Shown: in pieces, positions 6,825-22,124 of the stretch
How the letters are laid out: the number at the start of each line of letters is the position of its first letter
Numbering within the stretch: the stretch's first letter is position 1
DNA from: a virus
Taxonomy: Duplodnaviria > Heunggongvirae > Uroviricota > Caudoviricetes
IMG/VR virus record: IMGVR_UViG_2671180892_000012
Span: 1 to 25,466 of that record
DNA length: 25,466 nt
Direction: 5' to 3' (one strand)
Program-made: the position numbers and the translations under genes
The notes under the pieces: generated by a model
What the model saw: only the letters and a program-made list of their open reading frames with translations
Told to the model about the DNA's origin: nothing
The model's database searches: none

Positions 6825-7409
6825 ATGGCACAGAATATGCCTAAAGAGCAGAGGGTTACACTCATTACGCTAGCTACTTTAACTGCAGTAGTCGCAGTCT
6901 TTTGGTTTTTGTCTATGGTGTTCGAGCATGAAATAAAATGTTTGGGCCCCTTAGTAGTTTCACTCTCAAGTGCAATACCAGTTTTTTCCTTGTGGTGGCC
7001 ATTTAAACCTAAGTACATATCCAAACGAATACGAAATACATTATCCGTTGATTTAAATATCACAAACCATGTTCTGTTTGGTGATGGAGATTACAAGTTT
7101 GACCCTTATTTTTCCACTGCGTCAAACAGAAGCCTTCATGTTATAACAAGATATTCTAATTATCTTTTGGGAGGAGCCCCCGCCTTAGAAATATATAACT
7201 TCCATGAGATTGGTGATGCAGAAGCATTCCCAATAAACAAACTTGATATAAATAACACGCCTATTGAGCAAGTGGTTATTTTGAAAAACATTCATAATAA
7301 ATACGCCTTAATAAAAATAAACTCAATTAATCAACAGCACCCTCATATTTTTGAGATCGAGTACATTCTAAACAGCGCAGGTTCTGGGAATTTTACGGAG
7401 TGCAGATAA
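6825..7409 (+). CDS. Hypothetical membrane protein (194 aa) at the P2 Z/fun cargo position, opposite strand to the late genes
   Basis: ATG with GAGG RBS; two N-terminal hydrophobic helices (VTLITLATLTAVVAVFWFLSMVF; LGPLVVSLSSAIPVFSLWWPF); visibly AT-rich compared with flanking tail genes; between G and FI, where P2 carries Z/fun. Confidence 0.6.
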   Translation: MAQNMPKEQRVTLITLATLTAVVAVFWFLSMVFEHEIKCLGPLVVSLSSAIPVFSLWWPFKPKYISKRIRNTLSVDLNITNHVLFGDGDYKFDPYFSTASNRSLHVITRYSNYLLGGAPALEIYNFHEIGDAEAFPINKLDINNTPIEQVVILKNIHNKYALIKINSINQQHPHIFEIEYILNSAGSGNFTECR

Positions 7410-12714: not shown

Positions 12715-13500
12715 ATGGTCAGCTATAATGTGACTAATGTGTGGGAGCTAATCGTTTTGTATCTTTTGGTCTTTGCAGTATTAGCATTTTTTTGCTTTGG
12801 TAAAAGTAACCTTATGAGGCTTATTGCACATTATTTCAAATTTGGATATTCAGACAAAAAATTAAAAAGACTGGACCGCGAGTGGCGCGACATTCAACTA
12901 TTTAAAACACTTAACGGAATCAATGTATCAGGCATCGAAGATGTGAGAATGATACAGCAGGGGCTGATTGATGGAAAACTAAAAACATCGGATTTTTTCC
13001 TTACTCGCTTCTGGGGAGACATAACAGAACCGCTATGCATCACAAAAACAATGAGTGCAGTCCTGGCCGGAATTCTTTATATTATCTTCGCATGTTACAT
13101 ACACAATGAACAATCCGCTATAGTAAGGGATGCCATAGGTATACCATATAAAAATATGATGTACTATGTTTATAGTGACAAAGTTCTTTTATCCTTCAAA
13201 AATAAAACAGTTGAATTTAATAAAACTTATAGCCTTGCCGATTGCAAGAGTCTGCAAAACGTATTTATAAAAGACACACTTCCTGAGATCGCCTGCAATA
13301 AGCTCTTACAGCTAAACGAGGAGGACTCCGAATGGTTAAGTCAGGAGATTAAAGATAATAACAGCCACAGAAAAACATTATTAATACTATCCCTCGTCTA
13401 TTTCATTTCAGGTTTGCTTATATTCCTGTCATATACAAAATTCCTTTACGCCAATAAGAAGGTTTTAGAATACAAAGCATCAAATAAAAACCACTCATAA
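12715..13500 (+). CDS. Hypothetical polytopic membrane protein (261 aa) at the P2 orf30 cargo position
   Basis: ATG with AAGGAGAG RBS; three hydrophobic segments (LIVLYLLVFAVLAFFCF; AVLAGILYIIFACYI; LLILSLVYFISGLLIFLSY); AT-rich; opposite strand to flanking V and S; followed by a strong hairpin. Confidence 0.6.
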   Translation: MVSYNVTNVWELIVLYLLVFAVLAFFCFGKSNLMRLIAHYFKFGYSDKKLKRLDREWRDIQLFKTLNGINVSGIEDVRMIQQGLIDGKLKTSDFFLTRFWGDITEPLCITKTMSAVLAGILYIIFACYIHNEQSAIVRDAIGIPYKNMMYYVYSDKVLLSFKNKTVEFNKTYSLADCKSLQNVFIKDTLPEIACNKLLQLNEEDSEWLSQEIKDNNSHRKTLLILSLVYFISGLLIFLSYTKFLYANKKVLEYKASNKNHS

Positions 13501-15444: not shown

Positions 15445-15684
15445 TTAAGCCGGTACGCCGCCGGCGGTACGCCAGACGGTGACCAGTTTTTCCAGTGAAT
15501 GCTCACGCTGACCGTAACCGGCACCCGGCAGGGACGCCCAGATATTGCGACAGCGTGAAATGGCGCGCTCAATGCGTCCCGCCCGGATGTCATCCAGTGC
15601 ACCGCGTTCGCGGATCAACTGAATGGCGAGTCTGTCCTGTGACAACGGACTGAAATCCGGCAGGGCAAGCTGTTTGCGGTAAGG
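15445..15684 (-). pseudogene. K: 3' fragment of endolysin gene K (C-terminal ~80 codons only, no start codon)
   Basis: Open frame reads ...PYRKQLALPDFSPLSQDRLAIQLIRERGALDDIRAGRIERAISRCRNIWASLPGAGYGQREHSLEKLVTVWRTAGGVPA and is closed upstream by a stop at 15685-15687; the ORF-track M at 15645 is a TTG; the N-terminal catalytic part is absent. Confidence 0.6.
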
Positions 15685-16352
15685 TCATCAGACTGGAAAC
15701 CTCACCGGCAAAATATACCCGCCGTGGCGTGGAGGAGGATGTTTACTGGTGGGTGCCGTCCTTCAACGAGCCGACAGCCTTCACGCCCGGCTCCGTGTTT
15801 CACCTGCTGGAGCCGGATATCAATCAGGAGCTGTACGGCCTGCCGGAATATCTCAGCGCCCTTAATTCTGCCTGGCTGAATGAATCAGCCACACTGTTCC
15901 GCCGCAAGTATTACGAAAACGGCGCTCATGCCGGATACATCATGTACGTCACTGATGCCGTGCAGGATCGCAACGATATCGAAATGCTCCGCGAAAACAT
16001 GGTGAAGTCGAAAGGCCGCAACAACTTTAAAAACCTGTTTCTCTATGCACCACAGGGAAAAGCCGACGGCATTAAAATTATCCCGCTCAGTGAAGTGGCA
16101 ACGAAGGACGATTTTTTTAATATCAAAAAAGCCAGCGCCGCTGACCTGCTGGACGCGCACCGCATCCCCTTTCAGTTAATGGGCGGCAAGCCGGAGAACG
16201 TCGGGTCACTGGGCGATATTGAGAAAGTGGCAAAGGTCTTTGTCCGCAATGAGCTTATCCCGTTACAGGACAGGATTCGGGAAATAAACGGCTGGCTCGG
16301 TCAGGAGGTCATCCGCTTTAAAAACTACTCACTGGACACTGACAACGGCTGA
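15654..16352 (+). pseudogene. Q: 3' fragment of portal gene Q (about 230 C-terminal codons, no proper start)
   Basis: Frame is open from 15654; ORF-track start at 15729 is GTG; convergent with the late operon and ends about 170 nt before cos, as expected for the Q 3' end; identification as portal is from memory of P2 Q and synteny. Confidence 0.55.
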
Positions 16353-16522: not shown

Positions 16523-16541
16523 GTGCTTTCCCCGCCTCGCC
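16523..16541 (-). other. cos cohesive-end sequence (minus strand GGCGAGGCGGGGAAAGCAC)
   Basis: Plus strand gtgctttccccgcctcgcc is the reverse complement of the 19-nt P2 cohesive end as I remember it; located between Q and the old-position cargo, as in P2. Confidence 0.6.
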
Positions 16542-16647: not shown

Positions 16648-16666
16648 ATGCACCCTATAGGTGCAT
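16648..16666 (-). terminator. Hairpin (atgcacc / ggtgcat, 5-nt loop) just downstream of the cargo operon; possible terminator
   Basis: 7-bp inverted repeat 13 nt after the stop of the 333-aa gene; minus strand continues CATTTTG. Confidence 0.3.
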
Positions 16667-16678
16667 TCATATTAAACA

Positions 16679-17680
16679 TCACCGAGCCATCTTGACTGCA
16701 TAATGAACACAAAAATAATGTTCTCCCGCATATCTAAAATGATGTTCAATTTTTCTCAAACCTATATATGGAGTCTCCACTTCTTTAATCCCAACTATCT
16801 CATGAGATTCTACACCAATATCTACCGGAGTAATCTCTTTTAGATAATCAATGTATCTCTCACACCAAGCATCAAATTTTGCGCCAGTATAATAAGCAAT
16901 TAAAAACAAGCGTTTAACATTAATAGGATTATAGTTACCAATTAGCTTTGAATAATGCTTTAATATGTTAGCTTGATCTAGAGATTTTAAAATCAATGCT
17001 TCTATTATAGCAAATAGATTTCCTTTATCTTCAATAACAAGATCTAATTCACCCGCACTTTTACCAGATTGAGACTCTCCCTCTCTAGTTTGATCTTTTA
17101 CCTCATAATTCTTAGCTAATAACATATCCCGTATAAAATCATTAAAATCATCTTCACCATATCCTTTAGCAGAGCGACGCCCCAATCTTTGAAGCACCCA
17201 AGATAAATCACTATCAAACTTTATAAAATTCAAAGGACGCTGCACTCGATCATCCTTTGATATTAAGCTTATACTATTAAGATTTAACAAATTAATCCTT
17301 TGCCTGATTAATTCATCAATATATCCAGAGTAACTATTATTATCTAACACTACGATATGCTTATCAAAAGTAGTGGCTGCATTAGCAACTGCACAAACAA
17401 CTATATCCTTAATATCCTCAGAACTATTCGGCACTGGTGTACGCAATATCTTGCCTGAAGGAGCTTTAGATAACTCAGACTCCCACTTCTTAAAAAACAA
17501 AAAAGAATCCTTGTTGTTTCCGCAAGACTTTAAATAACCTAAGCGAATTTTTCCATCAGCATCAAGAATCAACTCATTTTCACCATTAACAATGGTTTCA
17601 ATAAAAAAACCGCTAAACACTTTAACATCAGAAATATTAGCAGCAACAAATTCAGGACACAAACAAACAGCACAAAGCAT
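16679..17680 (-). CDS. Hypothetical 333-aa protein, second gene of the ATPase operon; candidate effector, family not recognised
   Basis: ATG 1 nt after the ATPase stop (translationally coupled); AT-rich; no transmembrane segments; C-terminal half has a pattern (FIRDMLLAKNYEV ... GELDLVIEDKGNLFAIIEALILK) resembling Mrr-like PD-(D/E)xK nuclease cores, unverified. Confidence 0.65.
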   Translation of the reverse strand: MLCAVCLCPEFVAANISDVKVFSGFFIETIVNGENELILDADGKIRLGYLKSCGNNKDSFLFFKKWESELSKAPSGKILRTPVPNSSEDIKDIVVCAVANAATTFDKHIVVLDNNSYSGYIDELIRQRINLLNLNSISLISKDDRVQRPLNFIKFDSDLSWVLQRLGRRSAKGYGEDDFNDFIRDMLLAKNYEVKDQTREGESQSGKSAGELDLVIEDKGNLFAIIEALILKSLDQANILKHYSKLIGNYNPINVKRLFLIAYYTGAKFDAWCERYIDYLKEITPVDIGVESHEIVGIKEVETPYIGLRKIEHHFRYAGEHYFCVHYAVKMAR

Positions 17681-17681
17681 A

Positions 17682-19349
17682 TCAATGAACTCCCTTTGAG
17701 TTCATTATTTTTTGTATCTTTAATTCCTGTATTCTAATTGTATCCTGAATCTCAACATCCATAAACTCATTTGGCCATGTGATATCTCCATCAGAATTCA
17801 CAGCCACTCTATTTAGTAAGGTTGATGTTCCCTCTTCATCTCGCTCAAGATGATAGATTGCCACATGGTCCTCAGTAAGTTCGCTTGATTCATCAACAAT
17901 TCTTAATCTAATCCGTCTAACTAATGCATCACTATGTGTTTCAATAATAAAAATTTTCTTTTCTTGCATAGATATTTTAATTAATGCGTCAGTTAACCAT
18001 GCCTGCATTTTAGGATGCAAATGTATTTCTGGTTGTTCTATTATTGTAATCGAGCCCTTTGGTGACAAATAAGCTTGAACCAAGACAGGCAACACTTGTG
18101 ATATTCCAAACCCTACATCTGTCAATTCTAAATTAACAGCATCTTGGTTTATAACTATCTTATGAATTATGTCATTAACTCTAACTATATCAACCGCTAA
18201 GTTAAATTCAGCGAGAAGAAGGTTTATGTTTTCTGTTATTTTTGTATTTTTCTTCAGAATCTCCGCCAACTCAGAGCCATCAGCAGAATTTAACTGAGCA
18301 TGATTGACTGTTTTATCTAATAAATAATAACGCTGAGGAAATGCCCTCAACGGGCTGACATGATTAACATTTTCGCCATCAAACATTTTTGAAAGCATTA
18401 ATACTCCCAGAGAAACAACATGTGACAAAAAGTTAACAACAGGGTTGTAGGAATTTCCAAAAAAAACATAAAAACCACGTCCTTCATTGACAGGGAATAG
18501 CCCCAAAGAATAAGGATTCATGATTTCTAAGATATCAGACTTACATCCTCTAAATACTTCTTGAGGGATAACATCCGACAATACAACGACATTATTCTTT
18601 TTGGGTAACAGTTCAACTATTCTTTCATCATTCTTATTTAGAAGAACAAATCTCGAAACCTTTACCACACCTTTATTTTTATCATATCTGAAGTCATAAC
18701 TTATTTTAGATGCAGACAATTTATTTCCTGAAATAGAAACAACTTTAGTTAGGCAATCTTTGATTCTCTTCAATGGGCATTCATATATAAATCTGCGTAA
18801 GTTTTCTGAGGTGGCCCGGCTAAACATAATATTATTGCCAGCATCTCTAAAAAGCATAATCAACTGGCACAATTTATCAGCAATAATATTTAATTTAGCC
18901 TCCTCAAACTCATCAAAATTAACAATGGCATTCAAAGATTCATTTATCAAATTATTGGCCTTCGCGACCAACTCATCATTATTTTTTACTGTCTGTATAG
19001 TGAATCGCATAATCATAGCAAATGATTCTAAAGTTTCTCTTCTCAGAGTATCAATGCCATTTTTAACTACGCTATTATCAGAAAAATCAAAGCTAAAGTT
19101 AAGTGTTTTGGAGTCATCTTTATTTTTTATAATATTTAATGCTTCCCCCATTCCCACTTTAGGTCCATTCAGCCGTAGAGCAGAGTCAGACAATGACATT
19201 GAATCAACTGTCTGAGAAAACATCAACAAAGAGTTAATTAGTGCACTTTTTCCACAACTATTTGCACCTAACAATATTGTCAATGGCTTTAAATCTAACT
19301 TAAAGCTTTCGTATGCTTTATAATTTTGTCCTGTAAAAGTTCTCAGCAT
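17682..19349 (-). CDS. P-loop ATPase of the OLD/ABC (AAA_15/AAA_21-like) type, 555 aa, no Toprim domain
   Basis: Walker A GANSCGKS at codons 28-35 (nt 19245-19268, checked by reverse complement); Walker B/D-loop ITIIEQPEIHLHP and H-loop IIETHS near residues 433-473; about 400-aa insert between them; AAGGAG RBS 8 nt before the ATG; AT-rich. Confidence 0.8.
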   Translation of the reverse strand: MLRTFTGQNYKAYESFKLDLKPLTILLGANSCGKSALINSLLMFSQTVDSMSLSDSALRLNGPKVGMGEALNIIKNKDDSKTLNFSFDFSDNSVVKNGIDTLRRETLESFAMIMRFTIQTVKNNDELVAKANNLINESLNAIVNFDEFEEAKLNIIADKLCQLIMLFRDAGNNIMFSRATSENLRRFIYECPLKRIKDCLTKVVSISGNKLSASKISYDFRYDKNKGVVKVSRFVLLNKNDERIVELLPKKNNVVVLSDVIPQEVFRGCKSDILEIMNPYSLGLFPVNEGRGFYVFFGNSYNPVVNFLSHVVSLGVLMLSKMFDGENVNHVSPLRAFPQRYYLLDKTVNHAQLNSADGSELAEILKKNTKITENINLLLAEFNLAVDIVRVNDIIHKIVINQDAVNLELTDVGFGISQVLPVLVQAYLSPKGSITIIEQPEIHLHPKMQAWLTDALIKISMQEKKIFIIETHSDALVRRIRLRIVDESSELTEDHVAIYHLERDEEGTSTLLNRVAVNSDGDITWPNEFMDVEIQDTIRIQELKIQKIMNSKGVH

Positions 19350-19588
19350 ATAATCTCCTTTTTAATAATAGTATAAATGTTATGTCTCATAAGTTTTACC
19401 ATATATACACCACGTTATGGCAAATCTCATCAAAAATGAAAGCATCTCTTTTTATACATTTAAGCAGCAACCTGTTTCTCTGACCACCCATAGCCGTAGT
19501 ATGACGCATAGAAAAGAAAACATGAACAGATGTTACAAAAAATGTAATATGCTATACAAAACAATGCATTACAGCCTGAAGCGCTATC

Positions 19589-21859
19589 TTATACTACAAA
19601 TTCCGGCCACTCATCAGCGACCGGATACGTGAATTTTTTCCCGTCATAATTTACGGTTGCCCCACGCGCCAGCGACTCAAGCTCCCATCGCTGAGGTCTG
19701 ATACCGTTCTGAGCAAGATCAACGCGAATACGGGTAATTTGCAATCGTTCCGACCTGGTCAGCCTGGCCGATGGCGCTATTTCATGCGGTTTTAACGGGC
19801 TTCCGTTTCTTTGCTGACGATTTGGTCTTCTCAGGCCGTGTTTTAATGCCCCCCTGAGCCCCCTCACGACCTCCGGGTCATTCCATTCAATAACACCGTC
19901 ATCTACCAGATTAAGCACTGCTGCGGCGTGTTCAGAAGGCGTGGGAGCCGGTGACGAAGTATCACCACCGGTGAGCTTTCCACAGTTATTGACAGGACTC
20001 CGAGGCGCGGCGATGCCGCTTTTTAAAGTCAAAGGCTCAACGACCGGCACTTTCGGAACAATGCGCCAGTCCGTCGTTCTGGTGATATGAATATGACGCG
20101 CGCCGAGATGCGGCGCGTAAATGCCGACCACTCTCTCGACTTCTTCCTCGTACTCGTTAACGTCATCCGACGGGCTACGGGCGACCCTGACAGTCTGGCA
20201 ATCGCGCGGGACATTTGCCCCGCCCTGCGCGCTGATATACAACGCAAAATCACCACTGTCTGCAGCGGCGCGTGCAGCCTCGACGCGCTCGTCAAACTCA
20301 TCAGCAATGCTGACGCCGCGAGGCAATTTGCGTAGTTCACGGTAAGCCCCCATTGTCGGCAGACCAACCGTTTTAAATTGCGGGATGCGCCACGTTGACG
20401 CCCATGCGGTAACAGCCGCGGCAGTATCTTTCAGCGGTCTGCCGGTATCATTATCGAGCTGACCATCCAGTGCATAGCCGTCGATATTTTTTGAGATGTA
20501 TTTCGCGATATACCCCGCAGCACCGCCCCGGTTAAGATGTTTTGCCTGAAAACGGTTTCGCGCGGCTCCTCTTTCGTCTCCATCCTCTTTGAGCGCGTAG
20601 CGACGCATGATTTCAATAATCTGGTTACGCTGGCGTGGATTACAAAAAAGCATCATATGCCAGTGCGGCGTTCCGTCGTGGTGTGGCTCGACGACACGCA
20701 AACCGTAGACCTGTAAATCATTATCCTTGAATGCCGTGCGCATCAGGCTCCAGATACGGCAGAGATAACGCTGCGCATCCTTTGGATTAAATGCCTCATC
20801 GTTCCAGCCGTGATTAAGCTGCACGGTTTTACTTTCGCCTTTTCCGACCTGACGTGTCGGGTGATACTTTGACGGCGCGGTCAGCGTGATAAACATCCCC
20901 ACATCACCCTCTGCAGCGGCGTAACGCTCAATACCGGCAATGGTGTTCATCAGCTCCATCCGGCGAATTTCAGGATTAGAAATACTGCCCATCACCTTAC
21001 TGATAAGGTCGATGCGCTCGCCGGTTTCCCTGTTCTCAAGGTCACACGATTTAAGAAACTCCAGATTTGCCTGGCGGCGCGCACGCACATCACGAATGGC
21101 ATGTTTACTGGCATAAGGAGAACGGTCTTTATTGACCTCCCCGACAGCAATCAGTAACGCCTCATGCCAGCGCATACGCTGGCCTTTAAGCTGATGAGTC
21201 CACCACTCATCGTTAAACAGGCGGGCAATGGCAGAATATGCCTGCCTCGTGGTCATCTGTCCTTTACGGTATTTTTTCCAGTAGAGAGGGGAAATATTGA
21301 AAGCACGTGCAGCGCCAGCAACATGACCATAGAGGTGAGCCTGCGCCTCATCCGTAAACAGCGATTCTTTCTCGCCATGCGCATCCACCCAGGCATCGCA
21401 GAGTTCCTCATACATCATGAAAAGCTGTGATGAGATACGGGCGGCAAACTTTTTCAGCTCCTTGTCATTCATCCCCGGCAGACGCGCATACTGGTCGCGC
21501 TCTGCCAGAAACAGCAACGACGCGTCGGTGTTCATTTCATGGCGCTGATTCACGCGCTCAATGCGCGGCCATAAACGACGCTGAAAAGTGGATGTGAGGA
21601 AATAAAACCCGTGCACCGGGCTTTTATTGCGCCGGATGTAGTCATAGCGTGAAGTAAACAGCGAGCGCAAAAAGTAAGGCAGGCGGTTAATCGTGGATAA
21701 AACACCTTGCACCTGACGCATCTCGTCACGTGTAAGGGGTCTTTCGCGCCCGACGGCCTCGCGTGGCGCGTTCCATGCATAAGCACCGGTAAACGTCTTA
21801 CCGGTGCCTGCGGCAAATGCTGACGGAGGGACAAAATGCCCGGAGGCTTTAACGGCCAT
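19589..21859 (-). CDS. A: Replication initiation protein A (rolling-circle nicking endonuclease), about 756 aa
   Basis: HUH-type motif EPHHDGTPHWHMMLF and active-site tyrosine region GYIAKYISKNIDGY; ORF-track start at 21901 is TTG, the ATG at 21859 gives MAVKASG...; position after B and the small ORFs as in P2. Confidence 0.85.
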   Translation of the reverse strand: MAVKASGHFVPPSAFAAGTGKTFTGAYAWNAPREAVGRERPLTRDEMRQVQGVLSTINRLPYFLRSLFTSRYDYIRRNKSPVHGFYFLTSTFQRRLWPRIERVNQRHEMNTDASLLFLAERDQYARLPGMNDKELKKFAARISSQLFMMYEELCDAWVDAHGEKESLFTDEAQAHLYGHVAGAARAFNISPLYWKKYRKGQMTTRQAYSAIARLFNDEWWTHQLKGQRMRWHEALLIAVGEVNKDRSPYASKHAIRDVRARRQANLEFLKSCDLENRETGERIDLISKVMGSISNPEIRRMELMNTIAGIERYAAAEGDVGMFITLTAPSKYHPTRQVGKGESKTVQLNHGWNDEAFNPKDAQRYLCRIWSLMRTAFKDNDLQVYGLRVVEPHHDGTPHWHMMLFCNPRQRNQIIEIMRRYALKEDGDERGAARNRFQAKHLNRGGAAGYIAKYISKNIDGYALDGQLDNDTGRPLKDTAAAVTAWASTWRIPQFKTVGLPTMGAYRELRKLPRGVSIADEFDERVEAARAAADSGDFALYISAQGGANVPRDCQTVRVARSPSDDVNEYEEEVERVVGIYAPHLGARHIHITRTTDWRIVPKVPVVEPLTLKSGIAAPRSPVNNCGKLTGGDTSSPAPTPSEHAAAVLNLVDDGVIEWNDPEVVRGLRGALKHGLRRPNRQQRNGSPLKPHEIAPSARLTRSERLQITRIRVDLAQNGIRPQRWELESLARGATVNYDGKKFTYPVADEWPEFVV

Positions 21860-22124
21860 GTGAGCCAAAAGCCTCTGAACAACGCCTGCTGAGTTGCTCA
21901 ACCTGCGCGTTTAAATCAGCAAAAGACTTTGCGCTTCCGGTCAGAATATCGTGATGCATCATGCCGGAAACGAGCTGGCTTAATTTCGGGTAATAACCAA
22001 CCACCGCCAGCCATTCCTGACCGGCGTTTTTACCGCTTTCAGCTCTCTTTTTCTCGTGGAGAATAAACTGAAAGCTGTCACTGGTAACGACATAACGTTC
22101 GCCAATTTCAATACGAATACTCAT
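21849..22124 (-). CDS. Hypothetical early-region protein, 91 aa (occupies the P2 orf83 position)
   Basis: ATG start; tightly packed between the zinc-finger ORF and A. Confidence 0.55.
   Translation of the reverse strand: MSIRIEIGERYVVTSDSFQFILHEKKRAESGKNAGQEWLAVVGYYPKLSQLVSGMMHHDILTGSAKSFADLNAQVEQLSRRCSEAFGSHGR

Follow-up and report, generated by a model that had tools for sequence, protein, structure and literature searches.

A candidate two-gene anti-phage cassette of an NsnB-like ABC ATPase and a predicted nuclease in the gpA-gpQ hotspot of a P2-like prophage

Anti-phage systems that combine an ABC ATPase with a nuclease include Menshen, HEC-03, PARIS, Septu and Gabija. Menshen (Millman et al. 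2022; Li et al. 2025, PMC12065111) comprises NsnA, NsnB and NsnC and defends against T4. HEC-03 (Hma-embedded candidate 03) consists of an ABC ATPase and a VapC-like PIN protein, and defence needs both genes (bioRxiv 10.1101/2024.01.29.577857). Many validated defence systems, as well as old and tin, reside in a hotspot of P2-like phages between gpA and gpQ (Rousset et al., PMC9122126). Here we describe a pair of open reading frames (ORFs), ORF555 and ORF333, found in a 25,466-nucleotide stretch of DNA from a virus of the Caudoviricetes (IMG/VR record IMGVR_UViG_2671180892_000012), hereafter called the window. ORF555 encodes an ABC ATPase devoid of a nuclease domain; ORF333, immediately downstream, is proposed to encode its effector, a predicted PIN-like adaptor joined to a predicted PD-(D/E)xK nuclease. 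The two genes probably form a self-contained anti-phage cassette that is cargo of the P2-like gpA-cos-gpQ (old/tin) hotspot. ABC ATPases with adaptor-nucleases are a known kind of system; what is new is this two-gene variant, which PADLOC 2.0 does not recognize. The pair belongs neither to Menshen (no NsnA) nor to HEC-03 (partner unmatched), PARIS and Septu (different effector fold) or OLD/GajA (no Toprim).

ORF555 displays the hallmarks of the ABC ATPase superfamily: Walker A and Walker B motifs, a signature-like motif, an H-loop and a head with the ABC fold. A sequence-only reading of the window had placed Walker A at residues 28-35 and Walker B (IIEQPEIHLHP) with the ETHS H-loop at about residues 433-473, followed by some 80 residues. 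GANSCGKS indeed occupies residues 28-35, IIEQPEIHLHP residues 436-446 and ETHS residues 470-473 (H472), and 82 residues remain beyond the H-loop. The OLD/ABC-type head proposed in that reading was likewise recovered by Pfam search, with matches to AAA_15 (E = 7.6e-25) and AAA_21 (E = 2.2e-17) and weak ones to SMC_N and ABC_tran; the N- and C-terminal halves of the AAA_15 and AAA_21 profiles each align to opposite ends of ORF555. An AlphaFold2 model computed from a 62-sequence alignment had a pLDDT of 83.8 and a pTM of 0.83. Weak matches to NCH2 (E = 0.022) and GerPB in the Pfam scans were discarded as sub-threshold noise.

The absence of a Toprim nuclease, also anticipated from the sequence, held throughout. 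Pfam detected neither Toprim nor another nuclease family in the whole protein, in the insert (residues 89-327), in the last 82 residues or in any of the 62 homologues searched individually, and in the model only two strands and a terminal helix (534-551) lie beyond the H-loop. ORF555 thus has the OLD-type head (AAA_15) in common with P2 Old, class 2 OLD proteins and GajA, but lacks the C-terminal Toprim nuclease fused to Old and GajA.

Catalytic motifs of ORF555 deviate from those of typical ABC ATPases in a consistent manner. The catalytic-glutamate site reads E438-Q439, the Q-loop position is Arg (P333-L334-R335), and the signature is GFG (G413-F414-G415) in place of SGG. All of these are invariant in the 62 homologues. 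In a wider set of 80 loci from many phyla, EQPE was conserved in 75 of the 78 readable relatives. These loci were retrieved by two patterns, one of them GFGISQ, whose constancy across the set is therefore in part a product of the retrieval; EQPE played no part in it. Replacement of the Walker B catalytic Glu by Gln is a classic substitution in ABC ATPases, yielding proteins that bind ATP without hydrolyzing it. Because E-Q is kept across the clade, ORF555 likely acts as a slow, switch-like ATP-binding protein rather than as a motor. NsnB, as described from S. silvestris, has comparable alterations, with E-N replacing D-E in Walker B, Arg replacing the Q-loop Gln and GxG replacing SGG, and it terminates in a DUF3696 helix (PMC12065111). 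ORF555 therefore shares with NsnB an amide in place of the Walker B Glu, the Q-loop Arg, GxG and, more tentatively, a diverged DUF3696-type tail, but differs in having E-Q where NsnB has E-N.

Profile comparisons gave the same picture. Of PADLOC models, NsnB ranked first for ORF555 (E = 2.3e-51), followed by HEC-03 (HEC-03B model, E = 5.2e-43, 145.7 bits) and PDC-M55 (E = 4.7e-41). Two "AriA" profiles (E = 3.3e-28 and 2.8e-16) and, at about 1e-10, GajA and PtuA (PtuA 4.4e-10) ranked lower. The "AriA" profiles are 373 and 304 positions long and cover the very segments matched by Pfam AAA_15 (374) and AAA_21 (304), on which grounds we regard their matches as generic and not PARIS-specific; the PARIS paper itself detected AriA with the Pfam AAA_15 and AAA_21 profiles. 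Hence the comparison with AriA and PtuA that the sequence-only reading had favored did not hold: NsnB scored far above PtuA, and kinship with AriA and PtuA exists only at the generic AAA_15/AAA_21 level. In structure comparisons, the ORF555 model scored 17-18.3 with Rad50/SMC proteins, 17.1 with PtuA, 16.0 with the Retron Eco8 OLD protein, 14.8 with GajA, 14.2 with AriA and 13.0 with Thermus OLD, and Foldseek agreed. Searched by sequence against PDB chains, ORF555 matched Thermus OLD best (E = 1.1e-6) and then retron PtuAs (about 1e-3); AriA was not retrieved at E<=0.01. We assign ORF555, on these sequence grounds, to the NsnB-like ATPase clade.

Residues about 89-327 of ORF555 form an insert that varies far more than the rest of the protein, with a mean column entropy of 2.4-2.8 bits versus 0.5-1.1 bits in the catalytic core. 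The sequence-only reading had described an insertion of about 400 residues that separates Walker A from Walker B. The two motifs do lie far apart, but wide spacing of this kind is usual in ABC ATPases. The segment that aligns with residues 88-330 has 243 residues in ORF555 and already 99-152 in short relatives of the same clade, so the lineage-specific extra amounts to about 100-140 residues rather than 400. Nor does the model contain the long coiled coil that had been suggested. The insert folds as a compact helical and beta module, with helices at 93-120, 125-143 and 150-173 (19-28 residues), short helices, a four-stranded sheet at 215-257 and a helix at 303-323; its longest helix has 28 residues, and an SMC/Rad50-type arm is lacking. 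The variability of the insert fits a specificity or sensing surface, and we propose that it serves in trigger sensing or oligomerization.

The C-terminal tail bears a diverged likeness to DUF3696. Searched alone, the last 82 residues matched this family weakly (E = 0.011, 16.4 bits, below the Pfam cutoff of 22), with the DUF3696-type span at about residues 492-551. Matches at E<=0.01 were obtained for 14 of the 62 family members, the best at 8e-6. AlphaFold 3 models of NsnB4-NsnC2 show pairs of DUF3696 tails clamping the PIN-like domain of NsnC (PMC12065111). Because such a contact is seen in those models, we propose by analogy that the ORF555 tail may be the docking site for the PIN-like domain of ORF333.

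ORF333 is translationally coupled to ORF555, its start codon lying 1 nucleotide (nt) past the ORF555 stop codon. Full-length ORF333 had no significant match in Pfam or NCBIfam, and searches by sequence against PDB chains returned only chance-level matches. In PADLOC nothing was found beyond a weak match to CARF_PDDEXK (E = 0.0066). DUF4435, AriB and Toprim were not matched by Pfam or PADLOC at E<=1, and HNH was not matched by Pfam, PADLOC or fold. By fold, the C-terminal domain matched PD-(D/E)xK restriction enzymes (BamHI 8.7, BstYI 8.2, OkrAI 7.4, BglII 7.3) and also the DNase toxin CdiA-CT EC869 (7.5), McrC and HamA; Pfam PDDEXK_4 was detected below threshold (E = 0.063). Residues E176, D196, Q197, D213, E227, H242, K245, Y250 and Y263 are kept in 94-100% of 150 distant relatives, and D213 and E227 occupy the canonical beta2 and beta3 positions.

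The N-terminal domain of ORF333 is PIN-like but catalytically degenerate. In canonical PIN domains the first catalytic Asp stands at the end of the first strand. Strand beta1 of ORF333 ends in C6-x-C8-P9, and the domain retains one invariant acidic residue, D40. With the canonical acids missing, it is reminiscent of NsnC, whose adaptors are "inactive PIN" domains. In NsnC the PIN-like domain is constant and the C-terminal domain exchangeable, 15 C-terminal families having been catalogued, including BECR, Toprim, PLD, DUF4160, PB-UF1 and DUF2103-like (PMC12065111). ORF333 thus has the layout of NsnC, an inactive PIN-like N-domain followed by a predicted C-terminal nuclease, although its PD-(D/E)xK-like fold is outside the 15 listed families. 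HEC-03 resembles the pair in having two genes, a nuclease-less ABC ATPase and a partner with a PIN fold. It differs in that its ATPase model spans 458 positions versus 555 residues in ORF555, which has the larger insert, and in that ORF333 matches no HEC-03 model, is without the canonical PIN acids and carries the additional PD-(D/E)xK-like domain. PARIS and Septu have other effectors, Toprim/DUF4435 (AriB) and HNH (PtuB), instead of a PIN-like plus PD-(D/E)xK-like protein. The earlier view, in which ORF555 is solely an ATPase and its effector a separate protein, therefore stands with respect to the missing nuclease and the adjacent ORF333, but its kin are NsnB and HEC-03, not PARIS or Septu.

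The C-terminal domain of ORF333 is widely reused. An exhaustive phmmer search with residues 151-333 over representative clusters recovered 860 clusters at E<=1e-3, of which 332 reached E<=1e-10. Among 150 listed matches, in proteins of 146-1691 residues, the match lies at or near the C-terminus in all but one (P0255). Sampled architectures include leucine-rich repeat (LRR)-Roc-COR (ROCO) GTPases, an nSTAND3 nucleoside triphosphatase (NTPase) and an AlbA_2 fusion; the relatives of window positions 16682-17230 with these architectures are P0186, P0226, P0258, P0193 and P0172. This unannotated, widespread module has the invariant signature E...DQ...D...E...H..K. A terminal module common to several NTPase-regulated proteins is the pattern expected of an effector domain, and its C-terminal position on ROCO, nSTAND3 and AlbA_2 proteins leads us to read the ORF333 domain as an effector that would be under NTPase control.

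Pairing of ORF555 with ORF333 is obligate. Relatives of ORF555 number in the thousands and those of ORF333 53, and in every close relative (loci L002-L007 and L009) an ORF333 homologue lies directly 3' of the ATPase gene at a distance of -17 to 0 nt. Hosts of these close pairs are Dryocola, Pantoea, E. ruysiae, two Pseudomonas, Pseudoalteromonas and Phytopseudomonas. Identities of ATPase and partner from the same contig to ORF555 and ORF333 fall in parallel (about 71/60, 67/61, 52/45 and 47/40%). A third conserved gene was not found across the relatives' loci examined. In particular, an upstream gene for the ParB-DUF262 sensor of Menshen (NsnA, which also carries ParBDB and is encoded directly upstream of NsnB) is absent beside ORF555 and in the close relatives examined.

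More distant ATPases of this type have other partners. The PIN-like profile of ORF333 reaches the partners, of about 140-315 residues, of long-insert ATPases from Bacteroidota (L028, E = 6.7e-10; L008, 4.5e-5; L010, 7e-4), whereas the nuclease-domain profile does not. Since only the PIN-like profile extends to these proteins, it is the PIN-like domain that stays with the ATPase, while the C-terminal domain can be exchanged. In a Bacteroidota-rich set of loci (L008 and L011-L029; for example, L013 8724-9269), the partners have about 140-230 residues, or 315 at two loci, and consist of a PIN-like domain and a short Asn/Ser-rich tail with no recognizable effector domain and no PADLOC match. PADLOC likewise returned no matches for ten downstream partner proteins of relatives. 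Two cyanobacterial genomes (L043 2632-7310; L037 3348-8039) encode ATPase relatives of 567-583 residues with a long insert. Each lies directly 3' of a gene for a RAMP-superfamily (PF03787) protein of 645-674 residues and is followed by a protein of about 320 residues, one with a weak PLD/MIT_C-like match. This layout hints at a link between the ATPase-effector module and type III CRISPR-like components.

The genomic setting is that of P2 hotspot cargo. The window matches the E. coli strain N61 chromosome at 100% identity, with full coverage of a 3.2-kb query around the cassette; by RefSeq annotation it spans an entire P2-like prophage that runs from ogr to int and is sited between pflB and pflA. 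The cassette lies between gpA, its upstream neighbor across a 239-bp spacer, and cos/gpQ (Table 1), the same slot that old occupies in P2. We take the 19-mer GGCGAGGCGGGGAAAGCAC to be the P2 cohesive end. GC content is 0.32-0.36 in the cassette and about 0.53 in the flanks. The cassette is rare, with near-identical copies recovered from 6 of the 5426 complete E. coli genomes, and the same cassette, with 99% protein identity, is found in AM157364.1 (L087 243-2913), prophage P2-EC5 of E. coli ECOR5, where a ribosome-binding site is annotated at the position of the AAGGAG that precedes ORF555.

A pair only 48% identical sits inverted in the gpA-gpQ interval of E. ruysiae and of an otherwise intact E. 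coli P2-like prophage (L004 5976-12293; L082 564-7279). Low identity and opposite orientation in the same interval argue for independent acquisition of the same type of system. Elsewhere, pairs lie beside an Ogr/Delta remnant in Serratia and Proteus, next to AbiEii also in Proteus, and adjoin a Gp49/HTH toxin-antitoxin pair in Pseudomonas. The hotspot site, the Abi and toxin-antitoxin neighbors and the precedents of HEC-03 and Menshen support a defence role.

Table 1. Coordinates of the ORF555-ORF333 cassette, its subregions and the hotspot boundaries in the window
Feature	Position	Strand	Remarks
gpA replication endonuclease	19589..21901	-	Upstream hotspot boundary; Phage_GPA by Pfam on homologous prophage
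Shine-Dalgarno AAGGAG	19355..19360	-	5 nt from ORF555 ATG; sequence read
ORF555	17682..19349	-	555-residue ABC ATPase, assigned to NsnB-like clade; ATG start
Hypervariable insert of ORF555 (residues about 89-327)	18369..19085	-	Helices and beta sheet
C-terminal 82 residues of ORF555	17685..17930	-	Two strands and terminal helix 534-551; putative diverged DUF3696
ORF333	16679..17680	-	333 residues; PIN-like 1-145, PD-(D/E)xK-like about 150-333; proposed effector
Nuclease-like C-terminal domain of ORF333	16682..17230	-	Conserved residues, fold match
Terminator-like hairpin	16648..16666	-	12 nt 3' of ORF333 stop codon; consensus scan only
cos 19-mer GGCGAGGCGGGGAAAGCAC	16523..16541	-	One exact match in window; cos-proximal hotspot edge; intact
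Truncated portal gene gpQ	15729..16352	+	C-terminal 207 residues; downstream hotspot boundary

Two further low-GC (about 0.38-0.40) orphan ORFs are present in the prophage, at 6825-7409 (+, 194 residues) and 12715-13500 (+, 261 residues). They run opposite to the tail and baseplate genes at positions of P2 morons (Z/fun-like, and between V and S). Pfam and PADLOC returned no match for either, and both may be additional uncharacterized cargo.

By analogy with Menshen, HEC-03, PARIS, Septu and Gabija, the pair would work as an ABC ATPase that controls a nuclease. In the mechanism we propose, which draws on the NsnB4-NsnC2 AlphaFold 3 models and on HEC-03, ORF555 probably oligomerizes through its ABC head, and its DUF3696-like tail probably holds ORF333 by docking the catalytically degenerate PIN-like domain. 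The hypervariable insert probably recognizes a phage-derived trigger. A change in nucleotide state would then release or activate the predicted PD-(D/E)xK nuclease of ORF333, which would cleave phage DNA, and possibly also that of the host, and so halt infection. A more specific version, in which the pair is a minimal, NsnA-independent relative of Menshen with the insert as sensor, a naturally hydrolysis-impaired E-Q as ATP-binding latch and a hitherto unnamed PD-(D/E)xK effector family that also occurs on ROCO and STAND proteins, is less likely than not, and we hold it only tentatively.

Other explanations were considered. Menshen that has lost NsnA would leave an NsnB-NsnC remnant, either non-functional or reliant on a ParB-DUF262 protein encoded elsewhere, and the NsnB-like ATPase, the NsnC layout of ORF333 (PMC12065111) and the decay of the host prophage itself are all compatible with this. 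We nonetheless judge such degeneration very unlikely: the two-gene layout without ParB-DUF262 is kept in Enterobacterales, Pseudomonas, Pseudoalteromonas and an intact P2-like prophage, both ORFs are intact with conservation peaking at their motifs, and the ATPase and PIN pair of HEC-03 defends without a third gene. The precedent of HEC-03, whose effector is described as a VapC-like PIN protein, raises a different option, namely that the PIN-like domain of ORF333 is the real effector, an RNase, and that the PD-(D/E)xK-like domain is non-catalytic and binds nucleic acid or regulates. Bacteroidota partners that are PIN-like proteins with no other domain, and the lack of a canonical (D/E)xK Lys in ORF333, would agree with this. 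However, the PIN-like domain has a single invariant acid and a beta1 strand ending in C-x-C-P instead of Asp, PADLOC HEC-03 models do not match ORF333, the acidic/His/Lys set of the C-domain is kept in 150 distant relatives, and this domain recurs at the ends of ROCO and STAND NTPases in the manner typical of enzyme effectors. An RNase of this kind is therefore unlikely.

Functions outside defence, either as an addiction module that stabilizes the prophage or as a DNA-repair or recombination accessory with a Rad50/SbcC-like ATPase and a nuclease, are suggested by the Rad50 and SMC heads that best match the ORF555 structure and by the non-defence roles of part of the P2 hotspot cargo (Rousset et al.). 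Yet the model has neither coiled-coil arm nor zinc hook, the partner is not of the Mre11/SbcD type, and sporadic occurrence (6/5426 E. coli), low GC, variable orientation and Abi/toxin-antitoxin neighbors fit mobile defence cargo, which renders these roles quite unlikely. Most improbable is a PARIS- or Septu-like system in which ORF555, as a homologue of AriA or PtuA, sequesters a Toprim (AriB) or HNH (PtuB) effector that is freed upon binding of a trigger, be it a phage anti-restriction protein or another. NsnB, HEC-03 and PDC-M55 models score far better than "AriA" models that look like generic AAA_15/AAA_21, ORF333 folds as PIN-like plus PD-(D/E)xK-like without a DUF4435, Toprim or HNH match, and PDB chains of AriA (absent at E<=0.01) and PtuA (about 1e-3) are at best distant in sequence. 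Membership of PARIS or Septu was rejected on the fold of the partner and the ranking of PADLOC models.

Several observations weigh against a two-gene defence cassette as we propose it. The canonical Lys of (D/E)xK is absent from ORF333, position 229 (E227+2) being Leu or Met; a catalytic Lys would then have to come from the next helix, putatively K245, and nuclease activity would depend on this relocated residue. The PIN-like domain may do more than adapt, given that the Bacteroidota partners possess a PIN-like part but no recognizable effector domain. The proposed contact between tail and PIN-like domain is borrowed from the NsnB-NsnC AlphaFold 3 models. That the insert varies so much could be due to relaxed constraint instead of diversifying selection. 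A promoter scan of the 239-bp spacer 5' of ORF555 found no sigma-70-like site on the coding strand. The host prophage is defective, with gpQ cut and the tail sheath gene frameshifted (RefSeq); truncated gpQ adjoins a lysozyme fragment (15445-15645, -), a junction that indicates loss of the N-terminal part of gpQ, of P, O, N, M, L, X and Y, and of the N-terminal part of K. No PADLOC 2.0 model recognizes ORF333, and the cassette has been on record only as hypothetical ORF555/ORF333 of P2-EC5. In the literature searched, RefSeq accessions of the cassette proteins are not mentioned and no paper was found that names ORF555 or characterizes the cassette; a 2026 survey of P2-like viruses is silent on defence systems.

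Pairs of this sort would escape current detection tools; because PADLOC 2.0 recognizes only the ATPase, P2 hotspot cargo of the ORF555-ORF333 type is counted as "unknown". If active, the pair would be a compact two-gene addition to the ABC-ATPase-plus-nuclease defence systems. Activity would also mean that the NsnB-NsnC core of Menshen can function without the ParB-DUF262 sensor, with sensing of the trigger placed in the ATPase insert, and would assign a role to a so far unannotated PD-(D/E)xK domain that occurs in hundreds of protein clusters, bacterial ROCO and STAND proteins among them. Should the pair prove to be a minimal, NsnA-independent relative of Menshen, a single effector module would link three kinds of NTPase-gated immunity.

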